Virus record (IMG/VR): IMGVR_UViG_2534681657_000015
Coordinates: 1 to 11,524 of that record
Reading direction: 5' to 3' (one strand)
DNA length: 11,524 nucleotides
Source: a virus
Lineage: Duplodnaviria > Heunggongvirae > Uroviricota > Caudoviricetes
Part shown: one piece after another, positions 1 through 11,524 of the stretch
How positions within the stretch are numbered: position 1 is the stretch's first letter
Layout: each line of letters opens with the position of its first letter
Made by a program: the position numbers and the translations under genes
The notes under the pieces: model-generated
What the model was told of the DNA's origin: nothing
Seen by the model: the letters and a program-made list of their open reading frames with translations, nothing else
The model's database searches: none

Positions 1-1284
1 TTACTTCTTCGCCTCTGCAACCACTTTACTACCCACGCCGCGGTTATTGTATTCCCACATGCGGTTGTAGTTAGTGTCATTCAGATTGCGCTGTATTTCG
101 TCGTTATCATCTACGCTGCCGGTATTACCCGCAAACGGACGATTAGAGATCACCGCATCGGCCCACGGTTTAGCCGTGTTAAAACCTTCGTTGATGGCGC
201 TATCACGGATCACCACCTGACCGTTGGTATTGGCATCAACATCCAGCGAGCGGCCCAGTTGCGCCACACCATCACCGAAAGCATTGAAACGGCTGTTTAC
301 GGCGAGGAAACCGTAGTAAATGTTGGACAGCGTAGCCGGTGCAAACACATACGCTTCTTGCTGAGTACGTGAGTTCACCACGCGGAATTCGGTGTTATCG
401 AACACCACTGCGCCGCGACCAGAAACGATATCCACATCCCCTTCAATGTAGCTGTTGGTCACCAGCGTACGCGGCTGACGGTTGGTTTCCAGACGGTTCT
501 GCACACCGCTGTTGGTGACAAAGAAGGTGTTCTGACGACCGAGAATGTTAACGTTGTTAATCTGTACCTGGTCACCATCAGTACGCAGTGCCACCGCCGG
601 ATGGTTACCTGCATCTACGCTATCGCCCAGCGTGTTTTCGATGGTCAGATTTTGCAGTTGCAGGCCATTGTTTTGTGACCAGAAGACCGCAGAGCAGAGA
701 ACACCGATACTGTCGCTGCGTTTGCTCTGGCAGCTATCGTACATATACCACGCTGGTTTACCTGGCATATATTTGCCGCGCGGGTTGACGTCGTGACGCC
801 AGTCGGCAGGGCTCATGCCACCATCAAGGGAAAGCCCAATCTTCACATCAATCGGTTTTTCACCTGTACCGTACAGAGTAATTCCACCCGGAGCGGCAGG
901 GACATATACCGTTCCCTGATACTCACCAGGCATCACGGCAATATACTGGCGCTTGTTGGTACGCTTGATAATTGCCGCATCTACCGCCGCCTGAATCGTG
1001 GTATGCGTTACACCTTGAGTGCCCGCCGGGCCGACAACAAAGTCAGGTTGCGCAGGCAGGGTAATCGGGGAAGGATTCCACGCTGCAGCACCTGGTGTCA
1101 GGGATGCAAAATAGTGTTGAGCATCGAAATTCTGCGCTTCTTTTGCCGACAGAATCGGGCGAGAAGAGGTACCAGGCGCGGTTTGATCAGAAGGACGTTG
1201 ATCGGGCGGGGTTGAGCTACAGGCGGTCAGCGTCACGCCAAAAGCCAATGCCAGCGCCAGACGGGAAACTGAAAATGTGTTCAC
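1..1284 (-). CDS. ybhC: Host outer-membrane lipoprotein of the pectinesterase-like family (YbhC-type), complete ORF with signal peptide and lipobox
   Basis: 427-aa ORF; N-terminus MNTFSVSRLALALAFGVTLTAC is a lipoprotein signal peptide with an L-T-A-C lipobox; the body is Gly/Asn-rich and beta-helix-like, typical of pectinesterase-fold proteins. ybhC is the gene I recall flanking E. coli attB-lambda on the gal side, consistent with the adjacent att core. Confidence 0.85.
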   Translation of the reverse strand: MNTFSVSRLALALAFGVTLTACSSTPPDQRPSDQTAPGTSSRPILSAKEAQNFDAQHYFASLTPGAAAWNPSPITLPAQPDFVVGPAGTQGVTHTTIQAAVDAAIIKRTNKRQYIAVMPGEYQGTVYVPAAPGGITLYGTGEKPIDVKIGLSLDGGMSPADWRHDVNPRGKYMPGKPAWYMYDSCQSKRSDSIGVLCSAVFWSQNNGLQLQNLTIENTLGDSVDAGNHPAVALRTDGDQVQINNVNILGRQNTFFVTNSGVQNRLETNRQPRTLVTNSYIEGDVDIVSGRGAVVFDNTEFRVVNSRTQQEAYVFAPATLSNIYYGFLAVNSRFNAFGDGVAQLGRSLDVDANTNGQVVIRDSAINEGFNTAKPWADAVISNRPFAGNTGSVDDNDEIQRNLNDTNYNRMWEYNNRGVGSKVVAEAKK

Positions 1285-1320
1285 AGGTTGCTCCGGGCTA
1301 TGAAATAGAAAAATGAATCC

Positions 1321-1428
1321 GTTGAAGCCTGCTTTTTTATACTAAGTTGGCATTATAAAAAAGCATTGCTTATCAATTTGTTGCAACGAACAGGTCACTA
1401 TCAGTCAAAATAAAATCATTATTTGATT
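1321..1428. other. attL: Prophage attL (B-O-P'): 15-bp lambda core GCTTTTTTATACTAA at 1331-1345 followed by the lambda P' arm with arm-type Int sites (AGGTCACTAT, CAGTCAAAAT)
   Basis: Direct read: gaagcctGCTTTTTTATACTAAgttggcattataaaaaagcattgcttatcaatttgttgcaacgaacaggtcactatcagtcaaaataaaatcattatttg matches the lambda attP P' arm from memory; the left side of the core is bacterial (B arm) sequence; the int stop codon lies inside the P' arm as in lambda. Confidence 0.85.
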
Positions 1429-2489
1429 TCAATTTTGTCCCACTCCCTGCCTCTGTCATCACGATACTGTGATGCCATGGTGTCCGACTTATGCCCGAGA
1501 AGATGTTGAGCAAACTTATCGCTTATCTGCTTCTCATAGAGTCTTGCAGACAAACTGCGCAACTCGTGAAAGGTAGGCGGATCCCCTTCGAAGGAAAGAC
1601 CTGATGCTTTTCGTGCGCGCATAAAATACCTTGATACTGTGCCGGATGAAAGCGGTTCGCGACGAGTAGATGCAATTATGGTTTCTCCGCCAAGAATCTC
1701 TTTGCATTTATCAAGTGTTTCCTTCATTGATATTCCGAGAGCATCAACATGCAATGCTGTTGGGATGGCAATTTTTACGCCTGTTTTGCTTTGCTCGACA
1801 TAAAGATATCCATCTACGATATCAGACCACTTCATTTCGCATAAATCACCAACTCGTTGCCCGGTAACAACAGCCAGTTCCATTGCAAGTCTGAGCCAAC
1901 ATGGTGATGATTCTGCTGCTTGATAAATTTTCAGGTATTCGTCAGCCGTAAGTCTTGATCTCCTTACCTCTGATTTTGCTGCGCGAGTGGCAGCGACAGG
2001 GTTTGTTGTTATATGGCCTTCAGCTATTGCCTCTCGGAATGCATCGCTCAGTGTTGATCTGATTAACTTGGCTGACGCCGCCTTGCCCTCGTCTATGTAT
2101 CCATTGAGCATTGCCGCAATTTCTTTTGTGGTGATGTCTTCAAGTGGAGCATCAGGCAGACCCCTCCTTATTGCTTTAATTTTGCTCATGTAATTTATGA
2201 GTGTCTTCTGCTTGATTCCTCTGCTGGCCAGGATTTTTTCGTAGCGATCAAGCCATGAATGTAACGTAACGGAATTATCACTGTTGATTCTCGCTGTCAG
2301 AGGCTTGTGTTTGTGTCCTGAAAATAACTCAATGTTGGCCTGTATAGCTTCAGTGATTGCGATTCGCCTGTCTCGGCCTAATCCAAACTCTTTACCCGTC
2401 CTTGGGTCCCTGTAGCAGTAATATCCATTGTTTCTTATATAAAGGTTAGGGGGTAAATCCCGGCGCTCATGACTTCGCCTTCTTCCCAT
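1419..2489 (-). CDS. int: Tyrosine site-specific integrase, lambda Int type
   Basis: 356-aa ORF beginning MGRRRSHERRDLPPNLYIRNNGYYCYRDPRTGKEFGLGRDRRIAITEAIQAN, matching lambda Int in length and sequence from memory; C-terminal catalytic region with HELRS...LGH...Y; sits immediately beside attL. Confidence 0.97.
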   Translation of the reverse strand: MGRRRSHERRDLPPNLYIRNNGYYCYRDPRTGKEFGLGRDRRIAITEAIQANIELFSGHKHKPLTARINSDNSVTLHSWLDRYEKILASRGIKQKTLINYMSKIKAIRRGLPDAPLEDITTKEIAAMLNGYIDEGKAASAKLIRSTLSDAFREAIAEGHITTNPVAATRAAKSEVRRSRLTADEYLKIYQAAESSPCWLRLAMELAVVTGQRVGDLCEMKWSDIVDGYLYVEQSKTGVKIAIPTALHVDALGISMKETLDKCKEILGGETIIASTRREPLSSGTVSRYFMRARKASGLSFEGDPPTFHELRSLSARLYEKQISDKFAQHLLGHKSDTMASQYRDDRGREWDKIEIK

Positions 2490-2685
2490 TTCTGATCCTC
2501 TTCAAAAGGCTACCTGTTACTGGTCGATTTAAGTCAACCTTTACCGCTGATTCGTGGAACAGATATTCTCTTCCATCCTTAACCGGAGGAGGGAATATCC
2601 TGCATTCGCGCACCCATCGACGAACTGTTTCAAGGCTTCTTGGGCGTCGCTGGCGAGCGTTCCACTCCTGAAGTGTCAAGTACAT
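2467..2685 (-). CDS. xis: Excisionase, lambda Xis type
   Basis: 72-aa ORF MYLTLQEWNARQRRPRSLETVRRWVRECRIFPPPVKDGREYLFHESAVKVDL; overlaps the int start by 23 nt as in lambda. Confidence 0.95.
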   Translation of the reverse strand: MYLTLQEWNARQRRPRSLETVRRWVRECRIFPPPVKDGREYLFHESAVKVDLNRPVTGSLLKRIRNGKKAKS

Positions 2686-2710
2686 CGCAAAGTCTCCGCA
2701 ATTACACGCA

Positions 2711-2732
2711 AGAAAAAACCGCCATCAGGCGG
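2711..2732 (-). terminator. Candidate intrinsic terminator on the minus strand (stem CCGCC / loop TGAT / GGCGG, then a TTTTTT run), overlapping the stop codon of the upstream 55-aa ORF
   Basis: Plus strand 2711-2732 agaaaaaaccgccatcaggcgg; its reverse complement gives a 5-bp GC stem followed by a U-run in the leftward transcript. Confidence 0.4.
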
Positions 2733-2892
2733 CTTGGTGTTCTTTCAGTTCTTCAATTCGAATATTGGTTACGTCTGCATGTGCTATCTGCGCCCACAGC
2801 ATCCAGTGGTCATAGCAGTCGCTGATGTTCTCGGCTTCGATAACTCTGTTGAATGGTTCTCCATTCCATTCACCTGTGACTCGGAAGTGCAT
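2725..2892 (-). CDS. Small hypothetical phage protein (55 aa), MHFRVTGEWNGEPFNRVIEAENISDCYDHWMLWAQIAHADVTNIRIEELKEHQAA
   Basis: Hand translation of the minus strand; ATG at 2892-2890 preceded by a GGGGA Shine-Dalgarno about 6 nt upstream; position corresponds to a small unnamed ORF I recall just upstream of xis in lambda. Not in the supplied ORF track (below its length cutoff); the overlapping 66-aa track ORF 2784-2984 is in another frame and has no comparable RBS. Confidence 0.45.
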   Translation of the reverse strand: MHFRVTGEWNGEPFNRVIEAENISDCYDHWMLWAQIAHADVTNIRIEELKEHQAA

Positions 2893-3134
2893 TTATCATC
2901 CCCATAAAACAAACCCCGCCGTAGCGAGTTCAGATAAAAGAAATCCTCGTCAGTGCGAGGATGCTGTTCATTGCTGCTATACACTTTTTTGCTCTCAACG
3001 TAAGCGGTAGCCCATTCTGTTGGGTTGGTGCAGTTGCTTTTAGGAAATGCTATTTACCCCTTAAATGTCGGCTGAAAGAGCTAAAATCCATGCAAAAAAT
3101 TTACGCAATTTTGTGTATTATTGTGCAGTAAGTA

Positions 3135-3737
3135 ATGAGCTATTTTCTGCGCAAAAAATGGATGGTAAATTTGTCCGGGTCAGGAAAAATTTTATGGGCG
3201 CTAAACATGAAAAAAGATTCGTATCCTTATTTGATTTGCATGACAGTTTCAGGGCTGATCTTTATTTTCCTTTTCTTCTGGTGGCGGGCAGATATCTACA
3301 GGGTCACGTTTCTTAATCAGAGTATATCCCACTATTACATTCTGTTTAGCATGGGAATAGCTTTTCTGTTATCTCTGTTTTGGGTTAAGAAGGGGATAGT
3401 AAAACAAAGCGGCTGGAAGAGTCTGTCAGCATACCTTAAGGTTTATGCAGGGATGTGCATATTTGCTGGATTTTTTCTGATTATACCCCTTACGACACTA
3501 ACTTATTTTTTGCCTGGAGAGACATCGTCTTATGTTGCACCGTATCGGTATACTTCCGGTAGTTCAAAAAGTTGTTCTGGAGCTGAGGTGGATGACCCCG
3601 ATCTACATGAGAATATTCGCATTTGCTATCCGTATGGCAATTATGAGTACGATAATATTATCTATGTTGAAAAGAAAATTAATATATTAGGTGCGGTAGT
3701 GACATATGCACAGACCGCGCGTGATGATACTGAATGA
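3135..3737 (+). CDS. Hypothetical integral membrane protein (about 177-200 aa) with three predicted TM helices and a Cys-containing soluble C-terminal domain; accessory (moron-like) gene, function unknown
   Basis: Long plus-strand ORF in a clearly AT-rich segment; hydrophobic stretches YLICMTVSGLIFIFLFFWW, YYILFSMGIAFLLSLFWV and GMCIFAGFFLIIPLTTLTYFL; C-terminal ~75 aa hydrophilic with three Cys. Start is uncertain: candidates are 3135 (longest), 3162 and 3207 (MKKDSY..., typical of a membrane protein N-terminus); none has a strong SD. Opposite orientation to the surrounding early-left operon. Confidence 0.6.
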   Translation: MSYFLRKKWMVNLSGSGKILWALNMKKDSYPYLICMTVSGLIFIFLFFWWRADIYRVTFLNQSISHYYILFSMGIAFLLSLFWVKKGIVKQSGWKSLSAYLKVYAGMCIFAGFFLIIPLTTLTYFLPGETSSYVAPYRYTSGSSKSCSGAEVDDPDLHENIRICYPYGNYEYDNIIYVEKKINILGAVVTYAQTARDDTE

Positions 3738-3781
3738 TATAGTATATAGCGGGCAAGTTTTAGTTAATTTATCGAGGTAAT

Positions 3782-3805
3782 ATAATTTACCTCGACTCGT
3801 TTGTT
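3782..3805 (+). terminator. Perfect 9-bp inverted repeat TCGAGGTAA-tataat-TTACCTCGA just downstream of the membrane-protein gene; possible terminator or operator-like palindrome
   Basis: Direct read of 3782-3805; followed by ctcgtttgttc (only moderately T-rich); the loop is the hexamer TATAAT. Confidence 0.3.
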
Positions 3806-3947
3806 CTGGTATTAATATTTCGCTTTACGACCGATTTTTATCTGATGATATCATGCGGTTTTCATATACTGACTTACTGTCTTTTCTCCGTTAGCGATTT
3901 TCTCCTGCTCAGCGATGATTTTATCTTTGGCTTCTAGTTAATTTCGC

Positions 3948-4169
3948 TCACTTCGAACCTCTCTGTTTACTGATAAGCTCCAGATCTTGCTGGCAACTGG
4001 CACAAGTCCGACAACCCTGAACGGCCAGTCGTCTTCGTTCATCTATCGGATCGCCACACTCACAACAATGAGTGGCAGATATAGCCTGGTGGTTCAGGCG
4101 GCGCATTTTTATTGCTGTGTTGCGCTGTAATTCTTCAATTTCTGATGCTGAATCAATTATGTCTGCCAT
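3948..4169 (-). CDS. DksA/TraR-family C4 zinc-finger protein (73 aa), likely RNA-polymerase secondary-channel binder
   Basis: MADIIDSASEIEELQRNTAIKMRRLNHQAISATHCCECGDPIDERRRLAVQGCRTCASCQQDLELISKQ: a CxxC-(17)-CxxC zinc-finger preceded by an acidic, probably coiled-coil N-terminus, the architecture of TraR/DksA-type proteins; size and position fit the lambda Orf73 TraR-like protein as I recall it. Confidence 0.7.
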   Translation of the reverse strand: MADIIDSASEIEELQRNTAIKMRRLNHQAISATHCCECGDPIDERRRLAVQGCRTCASCQQDLELISKQRGSK

Positions 4170-4220
4170 CTTTCATTAATCCCTGAATTGTTGGTTAATA
4201 CGCTTGAGGGTGAATGCGAA

Positions 4221-4247
4221 TAATAAAAAAGGAGCCTGTAGCTCCCT
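4221..4247 (-). terminator. Candidate intrinsic terminator on the minus strand (GGAGC / TACAG / GCTCC followed by TTTTTTATT)
   Basis: Plus strand taataaaaaaggagcctgtagctccct; the reverse complement gives a stem-loop plus U-run between the 71-aa ORF and the TraR-like gene. Confidence 0.35.
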
Positions 4248-4267
4248 GATGATTTTGCTTTTCATGT

Positions 4268-4483
4268 TCACCGTTCCTTAAAGACGCCGTTCAACATGCC
4301 GATCGCCAGGCTTAAATGAGTCGGTGTGAATCCCATCAGCGTTACCGTTTCGCGGTGCTTCTTTAGTACGCTACGGCAAATGTCATCGACGTTTTTATCC
4401 GGAAACTGCTGTCTGGCTTTTTTGATTTCAGAATTAGCCTGACGGGCAATGCTGCGAAGGGCGTTTTCTTGCTGAGGTGTCAT
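4268..4483 (-). CDS. Hypothetical small phage protein (71 aa from MTPQQENALRSIARQANSEIKKARQQ...; the track extends it to 93 aa from an ATG at 4549)
   Basis: Minus-strand ORF; the 4483 start forms an ATGA overlap with the stop of an upstream 27-aa micro-ORF, suggesting translational coupling; the 4549 start has no SD and is immediately preceded by an in-frame stop. Confidence 0.45.
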   Translation of the reverse strand: MTPQQENALRSIARQANSEIKKARQQFPDKNVDDICRSVLKKHRETVTLMGFTPTHLSLAIGMLNGVFKER

Positions 4484-4563
4484 TGAACAAGCCCCATGTC
4501 GGCAAGCATAAGCACACAGAATATGAAGCCCGCTGCCAGAAAAATGCATTCAGTGGTTGTCAT
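4480..4563 (-). CDS. Candidate 27-aa hydrophobic micro-ORF (MTTTECIFLAAGFIFCVLMLADMGLVQ), translationally coupled on both sides
   Basis: Hand translation; its ATG overlaps the orf63-like stop (ATGA at 4563-4560) and its stop overlaps the ATG of the 71-aa ORF (ATGA at 4483-4480). Too short for the ORF track. Confidence 0.25.
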   Translation of the reverse strand: MTTTECIFLAAGFIFCVLMLADMGLVQ

Positions 4564-4751
4564 ACCTGGTCTCTCTCATCTGCTTCTGCTTTCGCCACCA
4601 TCATTTCCAGCTTTTGTGAAAGGGATGCGGCTAACGTATGAAATTCTTCGTCTGTTTCTACTGGTATTGGCACAAACCTGACTCCAATTTGAGCGAGGCT
4701 ATGTGCCATCTCGATACTCGTTCTTAACTCAACGGGAGATGCTTTGTGCAT
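4560..4751 (-). CDS. Small early-left protein, lambda orf63-like (63 aa)
   Basis: [63 protein letters not shown]; size and position (second ORF upstream of exo) match lambda orf63 from memory. Confidence 0.65.
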   Translation of the reverse strand: MHKASPVELRTSIEMAHSLAQIGVRFVPIPVETDEEFHTLAASLSQKLEMMVAKAEADERDQV

Positions 4752-4906
4752 ACAGCTCCCCGTTTATTATTTATCTCCTCAGCCAGCCGCTGTGCTTTCA
4801 GGGGATTTCTGATAACAGAAAGGCCGGGAAATACCCAGCCTCGCTTTGTAACGGAGTAGACGAAAGTGATCGCACCTACCCGGATATTATCGTGAGGATG
4901 CTTCAT
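4724..4906 (-). CDS. Small early-left protein, lambda orf60a-like (60 aa from [17 protein letters not shown]...)
   Basis: The ATG at 4906-4904 forms an ATGA overlap with the exo stop (4903-4905); 60 aa matches lambda orf60a; the track's longer 62-aa version starts at 4912. Confidence 0.65.
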
Positions 4907-5583
4907 CGCCATTGCTCCCCAAATACAAAACCAATTTCAGCCAGTGCCTCGTCCATTTTTTCGATGAACTCCGGCACCATCTCGTCAAAACTCGCCATGT
5001 ACTTTTCATCCCGCTCAACCACGACATAATGCAGGCCTTCACGCTTCATACGCGGGTCATAGTTGGCAAAGTACCAGGCATCTTTTCGCGTCACCCACAT
5101 GCTGTACTGCACCTGGGCCATGTAAGCCGACTTTATGGCCTCGAAACCACCGAGCCGGAACTTCATGAAATCCCGGGAGGTAAACGGGCATTTCAGCTCA
5201 AGGCCATTGCCGTCACTGCATAAACCATCGGGAGAGCAGGCGGTACGCATACTTTCGTCGCGATAGATGATCGGGGATTCAGTAACATTCACGCCGGAAG
5301 TGAATTCAAACAGAGTTCTGGCGTCGTTCTCGTACTGTTTTCCCCATGCCAGCGCCTTAGCATTAACTTCCGGAGCCACACCGGTGCAAACCTCAGCCAG
5401 CAGGGTGTGGAAGTAGGACATTTTCATGTCAGGCCACTTTTTTCCGGAGCGGGGTTTTGCTATCACATTGTGAACTTCTGAAGCGGTGATGACGCCGAGC
5501 CGTAATTTGTGCCACGCATCATCCCCCTGTTCGACAGCTCTCACGTCGATTCCGGTACGCTGCAGGATAATGTCCGGTGTCAT
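4903..5583 (-). CDS. exo: Lambda exonuclease (Red-alpha), 5'-3' dsDNA exonuclease
   Basis: 226-aa [68 protein letters not shown]..., matching lambda Exo from memory in length and sequence; ATGA overlap with the bet stop. Confidence 0.97.
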
Positions 5584-6365
5584 GCAGCCACCTTCTGCTC
5601 AGTGGCTTTCTGTTTCAGGAATCCAAGAGCTTTCACTGCTTCGGCCTGTGTCAGTTCTGACGATGCGCGAATGTCGCGGCGAAATATCTGGGAACAGAGC
5701 GGCAATAAGTCGTCATCCCATGTTTTATCCAGGGCAATCAGCAGAGTGTTAATCTCCTGCATGGTTTCATCGTTAACCGGAGTGATGTCGCGTTCCGGCT
5801 GACGTTCTGCAGTGTATGCGGTATTTTCGACAATGCGCTCGGCTTCATCCTTGTCATAGATACCCGCAAATCCGAAGGCGAGACGGGCACACTGAATCAT
5901 GGCTTTATGCCGTAACATCCGTTTGGGATGCGACTGCCACGGTCCGGTGATTTCTCTGCCTTCGCGGGTTTTGAATGGTTCGCGGCGGCATTCATCCATC
6001 CACTCGGTAACGCAGATCGGATGATTGCGGTCCTTGCGGTAAATCCGGCATGTGCAGGATTCATTGTCCTGCTCAAAGTCCATGCCATCAAACTGCTGGT
6101 TTTCATTGATGATACGGGACCAGCCATCAACGCCCACCACCGGAACGATGCCGTTCTGCTTGTCAGGGAAGGCGTAAATTTCTTTCGTCCACGGATTAAG
6201 GCCGTACTGGTTGGCGACGATCAGCAATGCGATGAACTGCGCATCGCTGGCATCACCTTTAAATGCCGTCTGGCGAAGAGTGGTGATCAGTTCCTGTGGG
6301 TCGACAGAATCCATGCCGACGCGTTCAGCCAGCTTCCCAGCCAGCGTTGCGAGTGCTGTACTCAT
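5580..6365 (-). CDS. bet: Red-beta single-strand annealing protein (recombinase)
   Basis: 261-aa [75 protein letters not shown]..., lambda Bet. Confidence 0.97.
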
Positions 6366-6370
6366 CCGTT

Positions 6371-6787
6371 TTATACCTCTGAATCAATATCAACCTGGTG
6401 GTGAGCAATGGTTTCAACCATGTACCGGATGTGTTCTGCCATGCGCTCCTGAAACTCAACATCGTCATCAAACGCACGGGTAATGGCTTTTTTGCTGGCC
6501 CCGTGGCGTTGTAAATGATCGATGCAGAGTGATTCAAACAGGTGCTGGGGCAGACCTTTTTCCATGTCGTCTGCCAGTTCTGCCTCTTTCTCTTCACGGG
6601 CGATCTGCTGGTAGTGACGCGTCCAGCTCTGAGCCTCAAGACGATCCTGAATGTAATAAGCGTTCATGGCTGAACTCCTGAAATAGCTGTGAAAATATCG
6701 CCCGCGAAATGCCGGGCTGATTAGGAAAACAGGAAAGGGGGTTAGTGAATGCTTTTGCTTGATCTCAGTTTCAGTATTAATATCCAT
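6371..6787 (-). CDS. gam: Gam, RecBCD nuclease inhibitor (138-aa long form; the short form would start at the internal [13 protein letters not shown])
   Basis: 138-aa ORF ending ...[22 protein letters not shown], lambda Gam from memory; located immediately upstream of bet. Confidence 0.95.
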
Positions 6788-6885
6788 TTTTTATAAGCGT
6801 CGACGGCCTCACGAAACATCTTTTCATCGCCAATAAAAGTGGCGATAGTGAATTTAGTCTGGATAGCCATAAGTGTTTGATCCAT
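6742..6885 (-). CDS. kil: Kil (host cell-division inhibitor), 47 aa
   Basis: Internal Met of the 89-aa track ORF gives [47 protein letters not shown] (47 aa); the upstream part of the track ORF overlaps cIII in another frame. Confidence 0.8.
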
Positions 6886-7018
6886 TTTTTGGGACTCCTG
6901 GCTGATTAAGTATGTCGATAAGGCGTTTCCATCCGTCACGTAATTTACGGGTGATTCGTTCAAGTAAAGATTCGGAAGGGCAGCCAGCAACAGGCCACCC
7001 TGCAATGGCATATTGCAT
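6854..7018 (-). CDS. cIII: CIII, FtsH (HflB) protease inhibitor, 54 aa
   Basis: Hand translation [54 protein letters not shown], matching lambda CIII from memory; below the ORF-track length cutoff. Confidence 0.85.
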   Translation of the reverse strand: MQYAIAGWPVAGCPSESLLERITRKLRDGWKRLIDILNQPGVPKNGSNTYGYPD

Positions 7019-7090
7019 GGTGTGCTCCTTATTTATACATAACGAAAAACGCCTCGAGTGAAGCGTTATTGGTATGCGGTAACGCCGCGC

Positions 7091-7459
7091 TCAGGCGGCT
7101 TTGATAGTCATATCATCTGAATCAAATATTCCTGATGTATCGATATCGGTAATTCTTATTCCTTCGCTACCATCCATTGGAGGCCATCCTTCCTGACCAT
7201 TTCCATCATTCCAGTCGAACTCACACACAACACCATATGCATTTAAGTCGCTTGAAATTGCTATAAGCAGAGCATGTTGCGCCAGCATGATTAATACAGC
7301 ATTTAATACAGAGCCGTGTTTATTGAGTCGGTATTCAGAGTCTGACCAGAAATTATTAATCTGGTGAAGTTTTTCCTCTGTCATTACGTCATGGTCGATT
7401 TCAATTTCTATTGATGCTTTCCAGTCGTAATCAATGATATATTTTTTGATGTTTGACAT
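7091..7459 (-). CDS. ea10: Ea10-like early protein (122 aa), acidic; reported ssDNA-binding-like function in lambda
   Basis: 122-aa ORF MSNIKKYIIDYDWKASIEIEIDHDVMTEEKLHQINNFWSDSEYRLNKHG...; size and position (next gene upstream of cIII) match lambda ea10. Confidence 0.75.
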   Translation of the reverse strand: MSNIKKYIIDYDWKASIEIEIDHDVMTEEKLHQINNFWSDSEYRLNKHGSVLNAVLIMLAQHALLIAISSDLNAYGVVCEFDWNDGNGQEGWPPMDGSEGIRITDIDTSGIFDSDDMTIKAA

Positions 7460-7479
7460 CTATTCATATCCTCACAGAT

Positions 7480-7506
7480 AAAAAATCGCCCTCACATTGG
7501 AGGGCA
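7480..7506 (-). terminator. Candidate intrinsic terminator on the minus strand (GCCCTC / CAATGT / GAGGGC then GATTTTTTAT), just upstream of ea10
   Basis: Plus strand 7480-7506 taaaaaatcgccctcacattggagggc; the reverse complement gives a 6-bp GC-rich stem and a U-run; position is compatible with a tL-type terminator that N antitermination would read through. Confidence 0.4.
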
Positions 7507-7719
7507 AAGAAGATTTCCAATAATCAGAACAAGTCGGCTCCTGTTTAGTTACGAGCGACATTGCTCAGTGTATTCACTCGTTGGAATGAATACACAGTGC
7601 AGTGTTTATTAGTATGCCTGTCTTTTAACCACATCAGGCTCGGTGGTTCTCGTGTACCCCTACAGCGAGAAATCGGATAAACTCTATTCACCCCTACAGA
7701 GAGCAAAAGAGAAACGCCG

Positions 7720-8301
7720 ATGAACAACTCATGGTGGCAGGAACTAATGCATTTTTTCCTGCAAGGAATGACACTTAAACAGTTGATTCATATGCTAATC
7801 ATCCTGATCATATTGATTATTGTTATGCCTGTAAGCGTAAAAGAATGGATAAACCTGCATAATCCAGAAATCCTTCCTCATTACTGGATGTATTACATCC
7901 TGTTGTTTTGCGTTAGCTATGTGCTTAACGGCGTTGTTAATTCCGCTTATCACGCTGTGACTGAAAGAATTGAGATATTCGCTGCTCAGAAGCGCAAATC
8001 TAAAGAAGAGAAATACGTGCAAGATTTGTTTGATTCGTTAACTCTTGGAGAAAGAGCGTATTTGGCATTCGCTGTAGCCGCTAATAACCAGCTAAAGACA
8101 GAAAAGGGAAGCCCTGAAGCAATCTCATTGCTCGAAAAAGGGCTTCTTATTCGGGTACCTTCTGCTACTGGATATCCTGAAATCGACCGTTTTGTTATCC
8201 CGGAACGCTATAGAAATGAGTGCTACATTAGGTTTGCTGGGAAGAAAGACAGTCTTATGGATGAACTTATCGCTCAGGATAAGCATGGCAAAAACAAGTA
8301 A
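7720..8301 (+). CDS. sieB: Superinfection exclusion protein B (SieB-type), inner-membrane protein
   Basis: 193-aa plus-strand ORF with N-terminal TM segments (LIHMLIILIILIIVMPV, YWMYYILLFCVSYVLNGVV), transcribed opposite to the early-left operon between ea10 and N, as sieB is in lambda/P22. Confidence 0.8.
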   Translation: MNNSWWQELMHFFLQGMTLKQLIHMLIILIILIIVMPVSVKEWINLHNPEILPHYWMYYILLFCVSYVLNGVVNSAYHAVTERIEIFAAQKRKSKEEKYVQDLFDSLTLGERAYLAFAVAANNQLKTEKGSPEAISLLEKGLLIRVPSATGYPEIDRFVIPERYRNECYIRFAGKKDSLMDELIAQDKHGKNK

Positions 8302-8317
8302 TTAGCAAATTAATTTA

Positions 8318-8590
8318 TCATCTCGCCGTCAGTTGTTTTGATTTCCGGTAGCCTGCCGCGTAAATGGCTACGTTTGGCAGGCAAATACTTCCACTGCATT
8401 CATCTGCCTTCTTGCAGCGAAGGCTTCCGAGTGATGCTGCTTTGTCTGCTCTGACGCAACCAGAGAGCTTTAGCGCAATTTTTCGCGCCAGTCGCTGTTC
8501 TTGCATTGCCTGCTCACGTTGAGCCTGTCTGCGTGCTCTGCGGCGATTTCTGGCGTTATTGTCAGCCAGATATGTAATGACTACTGCCAT
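8318..8590 (-). CDS. N: N-family transcription antiterminator (90 aa) with an N-terminal arginine-rich motif (NARNRRRARRQAQREQ) and a P22 gp24/phage-21-type C-terminus
   Basis: First gene downstream of the PL/nutL region on the minus strand; N-terminal arginine-rich motif; the C-terminal tail LPNVAIYAAGYRKSKQLTAR resembles the end of P22-type N proteins as I recall them; clearly not lambda N. Confidence 0.7.
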   Translation of the reverse strand: MAVVITYLADNNARNRRRARRQAQREQAMQEQRLARKIALKLSGCVRADKAASLGSLRCKKADECSGSICLPNVAIYAAGYRKSKQLTAR

Positions 8591-8699
8591 GTTGACCTCC
8601 GATGATTAACTTTGGCGGTGACGCGCCGGGTGCTTATCTTCCGGTTGCCGTCGTGCAGCTGCACTTCACGTCACCCCAAAGCCAACTACTCTTTGGTTC

Positions 8700-8740
8700 C
8701 CGCATTTCGGCGGGACAATCCCATCAATGTTAAAGAGCCT
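8700..8740 (-). promoter_or_regulatory. nutL: nutL: boxA (GCTCTTTAACA, 8729-8739 on the minus strand) and boxB hairpin (UCCCGCCGAAAUGCGGGA, 8700-8717)
   Basis: Minus-strand read aggCTCTTTAACAttgatgggattgTCCCGCCGAAATGCGGGAacc between PL and N; the identical boxA/boxB pair recurs downstream of cro on the plus strand. Confidence 0.55.
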
Positions 8741-8770
8741 GCCAATCTGTTCCGTTTGGCTACCAGCGTC

Positions 8771-8850
8771 CTGCCGATGACTTAAATTTAAGATTTCTTT
8801 AACTATTGGTCAAGAGTGTTTTTGAAGAAAACTTAAATTTTGTTGCGAAG
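8771..8850 (-). promoter_or_regulatory. OL/PL region: leftward promoter (-35 TTGACC at 8798-8803, -10 TAAATT at 8775-8780, 17-bp spacer) overlapping P22-type TTAAG...CTTAA operator half-sites
   Basis: Direct read of the reverse complement TTGACCaatagttaaagaaatctTAAATT; operator-like atttaagatttctttaa resembles the OR site atttaagtgttctttaat. Confidence 0.5.
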
Positions 8851-8870
8851 CTTAAGTTTTGCTTTGATTT

Positions 8871-8895
8871 TTAAAGGAAAGAAAAAAAGGGGCGA
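8871..8895 (-). terminator. Intrinsic terminator downstream of the repressor gene (AAGGGGC / ATTC / GCCCCTT followed by a TTTTTTTC run on the minus strand)
   Basis: Plus strand gaaaaaaaggggcgaatgcccctt at 8871-8894, immediately 3' of the c2 stop (8903). Confidence 0.55.
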
Positions 8896-8902
8896 ATGCC
8901 CC

Positions 8903-9553
8903 TTATGGAAGGTTTGCTATTTTTGCATCGACAACTACACCGATGATTTTGCAGTTCCCGTTGATCTCAATCATCGGATATTGTGGGTTAAGTGGTTTTA
9001 GAAACCTTCTGCCAGCATCAATAACTAACTTCTTGAAAGTTGCCTCGTTTTCTCCTTCGAGCTTTGCCACTACCAGCTTCCCATTACGAGGTTCTACTTC
9101 AGGATCGACTAGTATTATCATCCCTTCCGGGATGCTAAGCCCGGCTGGAGCCGTCATCGAATCACCCTTTACGTCCAGCCAAAACGAATCTTCTGAACAA
9201 TCTACGGTTGTATCGTACCAGTTATCTATTGCACGCTTATGATATGGCTCTACAGCTTCCATCCAACATCCTGCGCTTACCCAACTAATTAGAGGATACG
9301 AACCTCTTGGATCATGCCTGCTGTGATAGGCAATGTTTGAAAGACTATCTTCTCCTTTCAACAAGTAATCAGGGGAGCACTGTAAAGCCTTGGCTAAAGC
9401 CAATAGGTTTTCGCCATTGGGCTCAGTTTCAGAACGCTCCCATTGGGAAATAGCAACATTAGACACGCCAACCATCTTGCCGAGGGCAGCCTGCCTAATC
9501 TTAAGTTCTTTTCTGCGAGCGCGAATACGCTCACCCATCAGTTGTGTATTCAT
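8903..9553 (-). CDS. c2: Phage repressor, P22 C2 type (lambda CI family): N-terminal HTH DNA-binding domain plus C-terminal LexA-like autocleavage domain
   Basis: 216-aa ORF MNTQLMGERIRARRKELKIRQAALGKMVGVSNVAISQWERSETEPNGENLLALAKALQCSPDYLL..., near-identical to P22 C2 from memory; Ala-Gly cleavage site (VSAGCW) and a Ser/Lys catalytic pair (GDSM ... K) are present. Confidence 0.95.
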   Translation of the reverse strand: MNTQLMGERIRARRKELKIRQAALGKMVGVSNVAISQWERSETEPNGENLLALAKALQCSPDYLLKGEDSLSNIAYHSRHDPRGSYPLISWVSAGCWMEAVEPYHKRAIDNWYDTTVDCSEDSFWLDVKGDSMTAPAGLSIPEGMIILVDPEVEPRNGKLVVAKLEGENEATFKKLVIDAGRRFLKPLNPQYPMIEINGNCKIIGVVVDAKIANLP

Positions 9554-9554
9554 A

Positions 9555-9621
9555 GTTAAGACATCTTAAATAAACTTGACTTAAGATTCCTTTGATAGAT
9601 AATTTAAGTGTTCTTTAATTT
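9555..9621. promoter_or_regulatory. OR operator cluster with divergent promoters: three P22-type operators (agTTAAGAcaTCTTAAat, acTTAAGAttcCTTTgat, atTTAAGTgtTCTTTAAt); PR -35 TTGACT (9576-9581) and -10 GATAAT (9598-9603)
   Basis: Direct read of the 80-bp intergenic region between the divergent c2 and cro genes. Confidence 0.6.
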
Positions 9622-9633
9622 CGGGGCGAGTCT

Positions 9634-9819
9634 ATGTACAAGAAAGATGTTATCGACCACTTCGGAACCCAGCGTGCGGTAGCTAAAGCGTTAGGCATTA
9701 GCGATGCAGCAGTCTCTCAGTGGAAGGAAGTCATCCCAGAGAAAGACGCCTATCGACTGGAAGTCGTTACAGCTGGCGCCCTGAAGTATCAAGAAAGTGC
9801 TTATCGCAAAGCGGCATAA
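9634..9819 (+). CDS. cro: Cro repressor, P22 type (61 aa)
   Basis: MYKKDVIDHFGTQRAVAKALGISDAAVSQWKEVIPEKDAYRLEVVTAGALKYQESAYRKAA, P22 Cro-like, with HTH QRAVAKALGISDAAVSQW. Confidence 0.9.
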   Translation: MYKKDVIDHFGTQRAVAKALGISDAAVSQWKEVIPEKDAYRLEVVTAGALKYQESAYRKAA

Positions 9820-9825
9820 GCAAAT

Positions 9826-9869
9826 TGCTCTTTAACAGTCATGGTCCTTATTCCCGCCGAAATGCGGGA
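9826..9869 (+). promoter_or_regulatory. nutR: nutR: boxA (GCTCTTTAACA, 9827-9837) and boxB hairpin (UCCCGCCGAAAUGCGGGA, 9852-9869)
   Basis: Plus strand ttGCTCTTTAACAgtcatggtccttatTCCCGCCGAAATGCGGGAat just downstream of cro; same elements as nutL in the opposite orientation. Confidence 0.55.
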
Positions 9870-9927
9870 ATACAACGCGCATCAGTTGGTGCGTATAACT
9901 TCTTATTTGTTAAGGAAATACTTACAT

Positions 9928-10206
9928 ATGCAACTTACAAGTACTCGCAAGAAAGCGAATGCAATCACAAGCAACATCCTGAATCGAATTGCTGTACGTG
10001 GTCAGCGAAAGGTTGCTGATGCATTAGGGATTAATGAATCGCAAATTTCGCGATGGAAAGACAGCTTTATCCCAAAGATGGCCATGCTTCTGGCTGTGCT
10101 GGAGTGGGGTGTTGAAGACGAGGAATTAGCAAAGCTAGCAAAGAAAGTAGCCATGGTGCTGACAAAAGAAAAGCCTCAAGACTGCTGCAACAGTTTTGAG
10201 GCCTGA
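9928..10206 (+). CDS. c1: CII-family transcriptional activator, P22 C1 type (92 aa)
   Basis: Internal start of the 121-aa track ORF: MQLTSTRKKANAITSNILNRIAVRGQRKVADALGINESQISRWKDSFIPKMAMLLAVLEWG..., preceded by an AAGGA SD at 9912-9916; the 9841 start would place nutR inside the coding region. Confidence 0.85.
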   Translation: MQLTSTRKKANAITSNILNRIAVRGQRKVADALGINESQISRWKDSFIPKMAMLLAVLEWGVEDEELAKLAKKVAMVLTKEKPQDCCNSFEA

Positions 10207-10240
10207 TGTAGAAAGACTGGATCAATCCACAGGAGTCATT

Positions 10241-10268
10241 ATGACAAATACAGCAAAAATACTCAACT
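10241..10268 (+). pseudogene. O: 5' fragment of the replication initiator gene O (MTNTAKILNL...), interrupted after about 9 codons by the IS insertion
   Basis: AGGAG SD at 10231-10235 then atgacaaatacagcaaaaatactcaacttg = MTNTAKILNL, the N-terminus of lambda O (MTNTAKILNFGR...) from memory; the reading frame is broken at 10269 where the IS terminal repeat (TGAACCGCCCCGGG...) begins. Confidence 0.7.
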
Positions 10269-10322
10269 TGAACCGCCCCGGGAATCCTGGAGACTAAACT
10301 TCCTGAGAAAGAGGTAAACAGG

Positions 10323-10649
10323 ATGACTAAAAATACTCGTTTTTCCCCCGAAGTCCGTCAACGGGCAGTCCGTATGGTTCTGGAAAGTCAGGGCGAATAT
10401 GACTCACAATGGGCGACAATTTGTTCCATTGCTCCAAAGACTGGCTGTACGCCGGAGACTCTGCGTGTCTGGGTTCGCCAGCATGAGCGGGATACCGGGG
10501 GCGGTGATGGAGGGCTCACCACCGCTGAACGTCAGCGTCTGAAAGAGCTGGAGCGTGAAAATCGTGAACTGCGCCGCAGTAACGATATTCTTCGCCAGGC
10601 TTCCGCTTATTTTGCGAAGGCGGAGTTCGACCGCCTCTGGAAAAAATGA
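10323..10649 (+). CDS. IS3-family transposase OrfA (HTH / leucine-zipper DNA-binding subunit), 108 aa
   Basis: [60 protein letters not shown]...[36 protein letters not shown]. Confidence 0.9.
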
Positions 10650-11524
10650 TGCCACTGCTGGATAAGCTGCGTGAGCAGTACGGGGTCGGACCGCTATGCA
10701 GCGAACTGCATATTGCCCCGTCAACGTATTACCACTGTCAGCAACAGCGACATCATCCGGATAAACGCAGTGCCCGTGCGCAGCGCGATAACTGGCTGAA
10801 GAAAGAGATACAGCGCGTATACGATGAAAATCACAAGGTATACGGTGTGCGTAAAGTCTGGCGTCAGTTGTTACGGGAAGGTATCAGAGTGGCCAGATGC
10901 ACTGTGGCACGTCTCATGGCGGTTATGGGACTTGCCGGTGTTCTCCGGGGTAAAAAGGTCCGTACGACCATCAGCCGGAAAGCCGTTGCCGCAGGCGACC
11001 GCGTAAACCGTCAGTTCGTGGCAGAACGACCTGACCAGCTGTGGGTGGCTGATTTTACTTACGTCAGCACATGGCGGGGCTTCGTCTATGTGGCGTTCAT
11101 CATTGATGTGTTTGCCGGATACATCGTGGGGTGGCGGGTCTCATCGTCCATGGAAACGACATTCGTGCTGGATGCACTGGAGCAGGCGTTATGGGCCCGT
11201 CGACCGTCCGGCACGGTCCATCACAGTGATAAAGGTTCTCAGTATGTATCGCTGGCCTACACACAGCGGCTTAAGGAAGCCGGATTACTGGCATCAACAG
11301 GAAGTACAGGCGACTCGTATGACAACGCGATGGCGGAGAGCATCAATGGTCTTTACAAAGCGGAGGTAATACACCGTAAGAGCTGGAAAAACCGTGCAGA
11401 AGTAGAACTGGCCACACTCACGTGGGTGGACTGGTATAACAATCGACGATTGCTGGAAAGGCTGGGCCATACTCCTCCGGCAGAAGCAGAAAAAGCTTAT
11501 TATGCTTCCATCGGAAACGATGAT
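10646..11524 (+). CDS. IS3-family transposase OrfB (DDE/RNase-H-fold catalytic domain), -1 frame relative to OrfA, 3' end off the window
   Basis: Hand translation from the ATG at 10646 gives [29 protein letters not shown]...[38 protein letters not shown]...[11 protein letters not shown]...[20 protein letters not shown]..., an open frame to the window end containing integrase-core motifs (D...D...E). Absent from the ORF track, presumably because no stop codon lies inside the window. Confidence 0.85.

Follow-up and report, generated by a model that had tools for sequence, protein, structure and literature searches.

Two known relatives of the gene analysed here are orf73 of phage lambda and traR of the F plasmid. 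Purified lambda Orf73 inhibits rrnB P1 with an IC50 of ~50 nM, like TraR and with no need for ppGpp (Gopalkrishnan et al. 2022, PMC9239242). Transcription from rpsT P2 is likewise inhibited in vitro. The protein competes with DksA for RNA polymerase (RNAP) in an Fe2+ cleavage assay at 0.65-1 µM, and its activity is abolished by D3N, by D6N or by the double substitution D3A+D6A (PMC9239242). When expressed from pL in a defective lambda prophage, Orf73 reduced precursor rRNA to 29% and rpsT mRNA to 45%, and expression from pL slowed host growth (PMC9239242). On induction with mitomycin C, phage yield was 3-4 fold lower with an in-frame deletion of orf73 or with the D3A+D6A allele, and the authors concluded that Orf73 redirects host transcription away from ribosome synthesis (PMC9239242). 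A position of lambda Orf73 within the RNAP secondary channel had already been modelled on the analogy of TraR (PMC8614690).

For TraR itself, contacts of R48/R49 with the rim helices and beta' Si3 have been described (PMC9239242), and a C-terminal helix with a conserved acidic residue contacting beta Si1 is given as a family hallmark, with no residue number attached (PMC8614690). Like lambda Orf73, the phage TraR homologs P2 Orf82, VP882 Orf61, VHML Orf8 and Xenorhabdus bovienii Gp34 bind RNAP and inhibit rrnB P1, at concentrations 5- to 16-fold higher than those needed of lambda Orf73 or TraR (PMC9239242). Some members of this group lack part of the DxxDxA motif, and we liken them to the present protein by their published description (PMC9239242).

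We analysed a stretch of 11,524 nucleotides (hereafter the window) from IMG/VR virus record IMGVR_UViG_2534681657_000015. The window is the left end of a lambdoid prophage located next to the host gene ybhC, and only one prophage end lies within it. Positions 1-10269 are essentially identical to same-site prophages of several ETEC genomes (BLAST identity 100.0%, rounded; 3 mismatches against one of them). On the minus strand, the leftward order is a pL-like promoter, a nutL-like site, an N-like gene, ea10/DUF2528, cIII, kil, gam, bet and exo, continuing with orf60a (DUF1317), orf63 (DUF1382), orf61, orf73, orf55, xis and int. An earlier note on this DNA had placed orf73 in the early-left operon, and the gene layout is indeed that of the lambda pL operon. 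The landmarks of this region are as follows.

1..1284, minus strand: host gene ybhC
6973-7031: cIII thermoregulator (Rfam)
8318..8590, minus strand: N-family antiterminator gene, 90 aa, with the arginine-rich motif NARNRRRARRQAQ (Pfam PF25694)
8699..8739, minus strand: nutL-like site, a boxA-like GGCTCTTTAACA followed by a boxB-like hairpin CCCGC-CGAAAT-GCGGG (direct sequence reading)
8785..8813, minus strand: pL-like promoter (TTGACC, 17-nt spacer, TAAATT) beside the repressor gene (consensus match only)
8903-9553: repressor gene, P22 c2-like, 216 aa
9634-9819: P22_Cro gene

Lambda has the same order exo-orf60a-orf63-orf61-orf73, and there too orf73 directly follows orf61 within the exo-xis part of the pL operon. 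The immunity region is different, being P22-like and not lambda-like. We also observed that 8318-9819 is a mosaic of a P22-type repressor and Cro and an N-family protein, standing beside lambda-type recombination and integration genes.

The gene orf73 and the motifs of its product were located as follows.

3948..4169, minus strand: orf73 coding sequence, ATG start, 73 aa, product MADIIDSASEIEELQRNTAIKMRRLNHQAISATHCCECGDPIDERRRLAVQGCRTCASCQQDLELISKQRGSK
4146..4163, minus strand: DxxDxA motif (D3, D6, A8), codons 3-8, at the start of the N-terminal helix
4029..4034, minus strand: Arg-Arg pair, codons 46-47, equivalents of TraR R48/R49
3993..4067, minus strand: C4 zinc finger C35xxC38-17-C56xxC59, codons 35-59

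The earlier note had described a 73-aa product with a CxxC-(17)-CxxC finger and an acidic, probably helical N-terminus, and both descriptions were borne out. The finger is made by C35, C38, C56 and C59, and the protein has two cysteines beyond these zinc ligands, C36 and C53. Residues 1-15 include five acidic and no basic residues, and a helix is predicted from residue 5 to 27. Two stop codons (TAA TGA) upstream of the ATG rule out a longer in-frame start; the 89-aa forms that occur in some database entries of homologs do not apply to orf73 of the window. A chance occurrence of the cysteine pattern is ruled out by homology (a Pfam match and 178 homologs, see below).

Like the window protein, lambda Orf73 has 73 residues, 71 of which are identical (97%). 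All six cysteines, the DxxDxA motif, the Arg-Arg pair and E64 are common to the two proteins, which differ by V49A and E61Q, both at non-motif positions. We aligned 47 full-length homologs, from which all conservation counts given here were taken. Position 49 is Ala in 41/47 homologs, which makes the Val of lambda the rarer residue, and position 61 varies (Q in 13, E in 19). D3 is found in 46/47 homologs, D6 and A8 in 47/47, R46 in 47/47 and R47 in 45/47, and E64 is invariant. Together with C35, C38, C56 and C59, these motif residues are invariant or nearly invariant. Since the motif positions are kept in this way while 49 and 61 differ, the two substitutions miss every residue of known or suspected importance, and the A49/Q61 variant of the window would be expected to act like the lambda protein. 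The earlier note had proposed checking the equivalents of the TraR residues that contact RNAP; D3, D6, R46 and R47 are all invariant or nearly so among the 47 homologs.

At the DNA level, the orf61-orf73 region is 96% identical to lambda, and homology ends a few bases past the orf73 stop. Over the 701 bases around orf73, identity is 100% with phage mEp332 and 97.7% with phage 434; 181 phage records, including many of Stx-converting phages, contain similar sequence. In ETEC prophages the orf73 DNA is 100% identical, and its product is named 'TraR/DksA family transcriptional regulator' in RefSeq (WP_000763365.1). Several other phage records call the ortholog 'hypothetical protein'. The lambda RefSeq entry NC_001416 carries no annotation between ea22 and orf61; this gap holds a 73-aa ORF at lambda 30392-30613, which is the published orf73. 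The lambda protein was reportedly named Orf2310 in a ribosome-profiling study. Sequence, motifs, predicted fold and gene position support the identification of the window ORF as the ortholog of lambda Orf73.

Two observations were made on the DNA just upstream. Here orf61 has a long form, a 93-aa ORF at 4268-4549 on the minus strand, which RefSeq calls as 72 aa. An A-run near 4420 has one A fewer than in lambda, and the lambda reference is frameshifted into a 61-aa and a 60-aa ORF. Lambda Orf61 has been said to look truncated (PMC8614690), which agrees with the lambda frameshift seen here. The second is a small ORF of 31 codons with a GTG start (VNMKSKIIRELQAPFLLFAFTLKRINQQFRD; 4176-4271, minus strand), which overlaps the orf61 stop, contains the t2 hairpin described below and is closed by TAA TGA, in frame with orf73 and immediately ahead of its start codon. 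The mEp332 annotation includes this ORF, which at the DNA level has only 2 differences from lambda.

Membership of the TraR family was examined with profiles, homologs and a predicted fold. Pfam PF01258 (zf-dskA_traR) matched residues 33-64 with 36.4 bits against a cutoff of 24.9 (E=5.1e-9), and PHROG 54, 'DksA-like zinc-finger protein', matched residues 1-71 (E=1.8e-25). The NCBIfam model TIGR02419 (C4_traR_proteo) aligned over its whole length (1-64 of 64) with 55.6 bits against a curated cutoff of 59.7 (E=5.7e-15). A search for homologs of the product gave 178, with E values down to 4e-40. In the PDB sequence search, the best match by E-value was YbiI (2KGO, E=1.1e-5), covering only the zinc finger at residues 29-65, and F-plasmid TraR (5W1S) aligned over residues 1-64. 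For the pairwise alignment with TraR, residues 1-66 were taken from the PDB match; the last seven TraR residues were left unused. This alignment places D3, D6 and A8 on the DxxDxA of TraR, R46/R47 on R48/R49 and E64 on E66. E64 would thus be the conserved acidic residue of the C-terminal helix that is a hallmark of TraR, an assignment made from the alignment.

An AlphaFold2 model built from the 47-sequence alignment had a mean pLDDT of 81.5, with helices at 5-27, 44-49 and 57-69 and a zinc knuckle region. When this model was compared with the PDB by Foldseek, the top matches were RNAP-bound TraR structures (6N57_M and 5W1S_M; probability 1.00, TM 0.55-0.58, 67-69 columns), and YbiI and several DksA structures ranked after them. 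The rmsd to TraR was 4-5 Å, which we put down to differing helix angles in the free model. Structure prediction, which the earlier note had proposed as a check of its TraR/DksA-like assignment, thus retrieved the TraR-RNAP complexes first, alongside a full-length TraR alignment. Similarity to TraR goes beyond the four cysteines, as the DxxDxA motif, the Arg-Arg pair and the C-terminal glutamate are common to both.

Like F-plasmid TraR (5W1S, 6N57), the window protein has a three-part architecture with a DxxDxA tip and a C4 finger with 17-residue spacing, and the two are of the same size. They also have in common the arginine pair (R48/R49 in TraR, R46/R47 here) and the glutamate of the C-terminal helix. 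Identity between them is ~32%, the window protein has two extra cysteines, and the TraR gene sits in the tra operon of a conjugative plasmid and not in a phage. DksA (1TJL, 5VSW, 7KHI) shares the zf-dskA_traR finger and, as predicted for the window protein, an acidic tip toward the RNAP active site and the same RNAP binding site, and the two would inhibit the same promoter class. In contrast, DksA has ~150 aa with the tip on a coiled-coil hairpin, is fully active only with ppGpp and is encoded by a chromosomal housekeeping gene. DksA proper was ruled out for the window protein, which has 73 aa, a single N-terminal helix and a TM normalised to DksA of ~0.31. YbiI is an 88-aa chromosomal protein of E. 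coli, of the DksA/TraR family, with a zinc-finger segment resembling that of the orf73 product; a YbiI equivalog was also ruled out (NF008243, 39.5 bits against a cutoff of 96; no full-length match). We therefore read the gene as the orf73 of a lambda-like prophage, encoding a TraR-family RNAP binder within the pL operon, and give this whole explanation a probability of roughly 93%.

Beyond orf73, the window departs from lambda, and the following features were found there and toward the other end of the window.

3951-3934, minus strand: ea22 relic, GTG AGC GAA ATT AAC TAG (MSEIN-stop), the first five codons of lambda ea22
2961-3131, plus strand: ORF, 56 aa
3135-3737, plus strand: ORF, 200 aa, putative membrane protein, PHROG 1416
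10323-10649: IS3-family OrfA, HTH_Tnp_1
10604-10720: ALIL frameshift pseudoknot (Rfam)

In lambda, orf73 is followed by ea22, whereas the window has the 5-codon relic and a convergent two-gene cassette on the plus strand. The relic overlaps the orf73 stop, as the GTG start of lambda ea22 does, and lambda homology ends exactly there. The cassette (2961-3795) replaces ea22 and ea8.5, in the same arrangement as in phages 434 and mEp332. A Pfam search of the 200-aa ORF gave no match, and neither Orf73 nor the plus-strand cassette was matched in a scan for defence systems with PADLOC. The cassette could represent a moron, or else an exclusion gene that the prophage expresses. Transcripts from pL that pass orf73 would run antisense through 2961-3795.

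An IS3-family element starts after window position 10269, 29 nt past the ATG of an O-like replication gene (window 10241-11524). Its left end is TGAACCGCCCCGGGAATCCTGGAGAC, which we take to be IS629/IS1203-like. Essentially identical ETEC prophages are without this insertion. Because the element splits the O-like gene, the prophage of the window may be replication-defective, and a productive lytic cycle is perhaps impossible. The gene could then be an intact passenger, whose expression in an SOS response would only slow the host with no benefit to the phage. The match of the window to intact ETEC prophages up to 10269, followed directly by the IS3-family element in the O-like gene, speaks for this passenger role. 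However, orf73 is intact, as are the upstream operon, the repressor gene and the promoter-like site, the prophage is seen at one end only within the window, and the insertion may be recent and tells nothing on protein activity, so we regard the passenger role as rather unlikely. The insertion leaves the identity of the protein untouched and bears on whether a higher burst could be realised in this strain.

Another possibility is that the main role of such a protein, with the same RNAP biochemistry, lies in the lysis-lysogeny decision or in a block of host replication initiation (the 'bin' phenotype) and not in lytic yield. The Wegrzyn and Donaldson groups described orf73 and ea22 as pro-lysogenic by deletion phenotypes (PMC8614690), and in one earlier study, as cited in PMC9239242 and PMC8614690, orf73 lowered phage yield on infection and was called pro-lysogenic. 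Earlier work, as relayed in PMC9239242, tied orf73, ea22, ea8.5 and orf55 to the block of host replication initiation, and lambda Orf73 inhibits dnaA P2 and P1 in vitro at high concentration (IC50 ~0.4 and 1.7 µM; PMC9239242). With non-polar orf73 alleles, however, it was the yield that fell 3-4 fold, while dnaA mRNA in vivo was down weakly if at all, and the opposite yield result of the earlier study may stem from polar constructs or from infection versus induction (PMC9239242). The physiological role of orf73 is still debated, and we hold a main role outside lytic yield to be unlikely. The proposal of the earlier note, that a phage copy would reprogram host transcription in lytic growth, for example by down-regulating rRNA promoters, matches the published data on lambda Orf73 (PMC9239242).

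The expression of orf73 was considered from the terminators and promoters around it. The terminator-like sites are listed here.

7507-7486 and 7067-7048, minus strand: further upstream terminator-like hairpins
4820..4842, minus strand: terminator-like hairpin inside orf60a, sequence equal to the predicted 't1' of lambda/phi24B (PMC4195576)
4247..4229 (listed span 4219..4247), minus strand: t2-like intrinsic-terminator hairpin and T-run between orf61 and orf73
3772..3795, plus strand: terminator-like hairpin for the convergent cassette, downstream of orf73
2962-2915 and 2735-2716, minus strand: next terminator-like sites, ~1 kb beyond

The upstream hairpin and its T-run, AGGGAGCTACAGGCTCCTT TTTTATTATT, lie 60 nt before the orf73 ATG. 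The hairpin sequence is that of the predicted 't2' of lambda and phi24B (Table 4 of Bloch et al. 2014, PMC4195576), and it is 100% identical between lambda and the window. In lambda, the mRNA of orf73, ea22 and ea8.5, i.e. of genes downstream of t2, was below that of the upstream genes (PMC4195576). The earlier note had orf73 flanked on both sides by candidate terminators. This holds upstream, on the strand of orf73, and does not hold downstream, where the hairpin is best read as the terminator of the convergent plus-strand gene. The convergent 200-aa ORF is followed, 35 nt past its stop, by the hairpin at 3772..3795, which has a terminator score for the plus strand alone. On the minus strand it folds with -13.8 kcal/mol (z -4.7) and is then followed by AUAAAUUAACUAAAAC, with no U-run; as a same-strand terminator of orf73 it was ruled out, since only the plus strand carries the T-rich tail.

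The orf60a hairpin (t1) is probably lambda tL3; pKD46 (lambda 31088-33241) includes tL3. The hairpin at 4247-4229 had been considered as the classical lambda tL3 and was dropped, since it is published as t2 (PMC4195576) and the orf60a hairpin is the likelier tL3.

The N-like gene matched Pfam PF25694 (N_peptide) with 58.7 bits against a cutoff of 27.9 (E=8.8e-16). The nutL-like site is so called by analogy with lambdoid nut sites. Its boxA-like element is presumably close to rrn boxA. The loop of the boxB-like hairpin has 6 nt (CGAAAT), compared with the pentaloop of lambda. An Rfam scan found no RNA element at or beside orf73; its two matches in the window, the cIII thermoregulator and the IS3 ALIL pseudoknot, lie elsewhere. 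We infer, soundly in our judgement, that orf73 expression depends on N-mediated read-through, as the earlier note had it, because of the gene order, the N-family gene, the nutL-like site, the intervening terminators and textbook lambda biology.

Expression of orf73 mainly from a sigma-70 promoter of its own, overlapping the upstream hairpin, would be independent of N read-through. A BPROM promoter p1 (-35 TCATCA, -10 TTTTATTAT) has been predicted at the identical sequence, and it might explain why in phi24B the mRNA of orf73 and ea22 was above that of upstream orf61 (PMC4195576). Our consensus promoter scan, however, gave no minus-strand promoter-like site at the upstream hairpin, and the lower mRNA of orf73, ea22 and ea8.5 in lambda is as partial termination predicts (PMC4195576). 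Moreover, in defective lambda prophages the effects of orf73 were seen only with pL induced (PMC9239242), and we find a mainly N-independent expression quite unlikely. That the product is a generic zinc-ribbon protein, TraR/DksA-like in its four cysteines only and with a function unrelated to RNAP, is hardly credible: the top PDB match by E-value is indeed to the YbiI finger, and the TIGR02419 score is slightly under its cutoff, but the similarity to TraR is full-length (DxxDxA, Arg-Arg pair, glutamate of the C-terminal helix), RNAP-bound TraR heads the fold search with alignments of 67-69 of 73 columns, and the 97%-identical lambda protein binds RNAP (PMC9239242).

The earlier note had further supposed that the protein mimics the combined effect of DksA and ppGpp. 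This applies to inhibition, which lambda Orf73 exerts with no ppGpp, but activation was barely seen: thrABC, argI and rpoH P3 were activated by lambda Orf73 weakly if at all, whereas TraR activates several promoters (PMC9239242). Because lambda Orf73 barely activated the promoters examined, it does not reproduce the whole function of TraR or of DksA with ppGpp, and only the inhibitory half is documented. The authors of that work suspect the two extra cysteines behind the weak activation (PMC9239242). In our alignment 46/47 homologs have C53 and only 15/47 have C36, and C53 makes a second, overlapping CxxC (C53xxC56xxC59). Because C53 is near-invariant in the clade whereas C36 is variable, the pattern suggests that C53 is selected and not incidental. 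As a speculation to which we give little chance, C53 could serve, for instance, as an alternative zinc ligand or as a redox-sensitive switch reshaping the globular domain, and the Orf73 clade a stress-tuned variant of TraR. If this were true, C53 could explain why lambda Orf73 inhibits and does not activate, and also why exo-xis effects are strongest under oxidative induction, and the Orf73 clade would be functionally distinct from TraR.

The gene orf73 is already known, as the family, the TraR-RNAP structure and the function of the near-identical lambda protein have all been published. The value of the present analysis is in annotation: the gene should be labelled as orf73, encoding a TraR-family RNAP-binding regulator, and not as 'hypothetical protein' or omitted. 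Its function class could be inferred correctly from the raw sequence, as the first reading did. Read as the orf73 of a lambda-like prophage, the gene would be transcribed on prophage induction in the leftward early pL operon, past several intrinsic terminators, where the N-type antiterminator of the phage probably helps read-through. Its product is predicted to have a long N-terminal helix with the DxxDxA tip, a C4 zinc globular domain with the Arg-Arg pair, and a C-terminal helix. As a homolog of lambda Orf73 and TraR, it would bind the secondary channel of E. coli RNAP at the DksA site, binding no DNA and needing no ppGpp. The acidic tip, near the active site, would destabilise open complexes at kinetically sensitive promoters such as those of rRNA and ribosomal protein genes. 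Host transcription would in this way be diverted from ribosome synthesis, with slower host growth and a higher phage yield.
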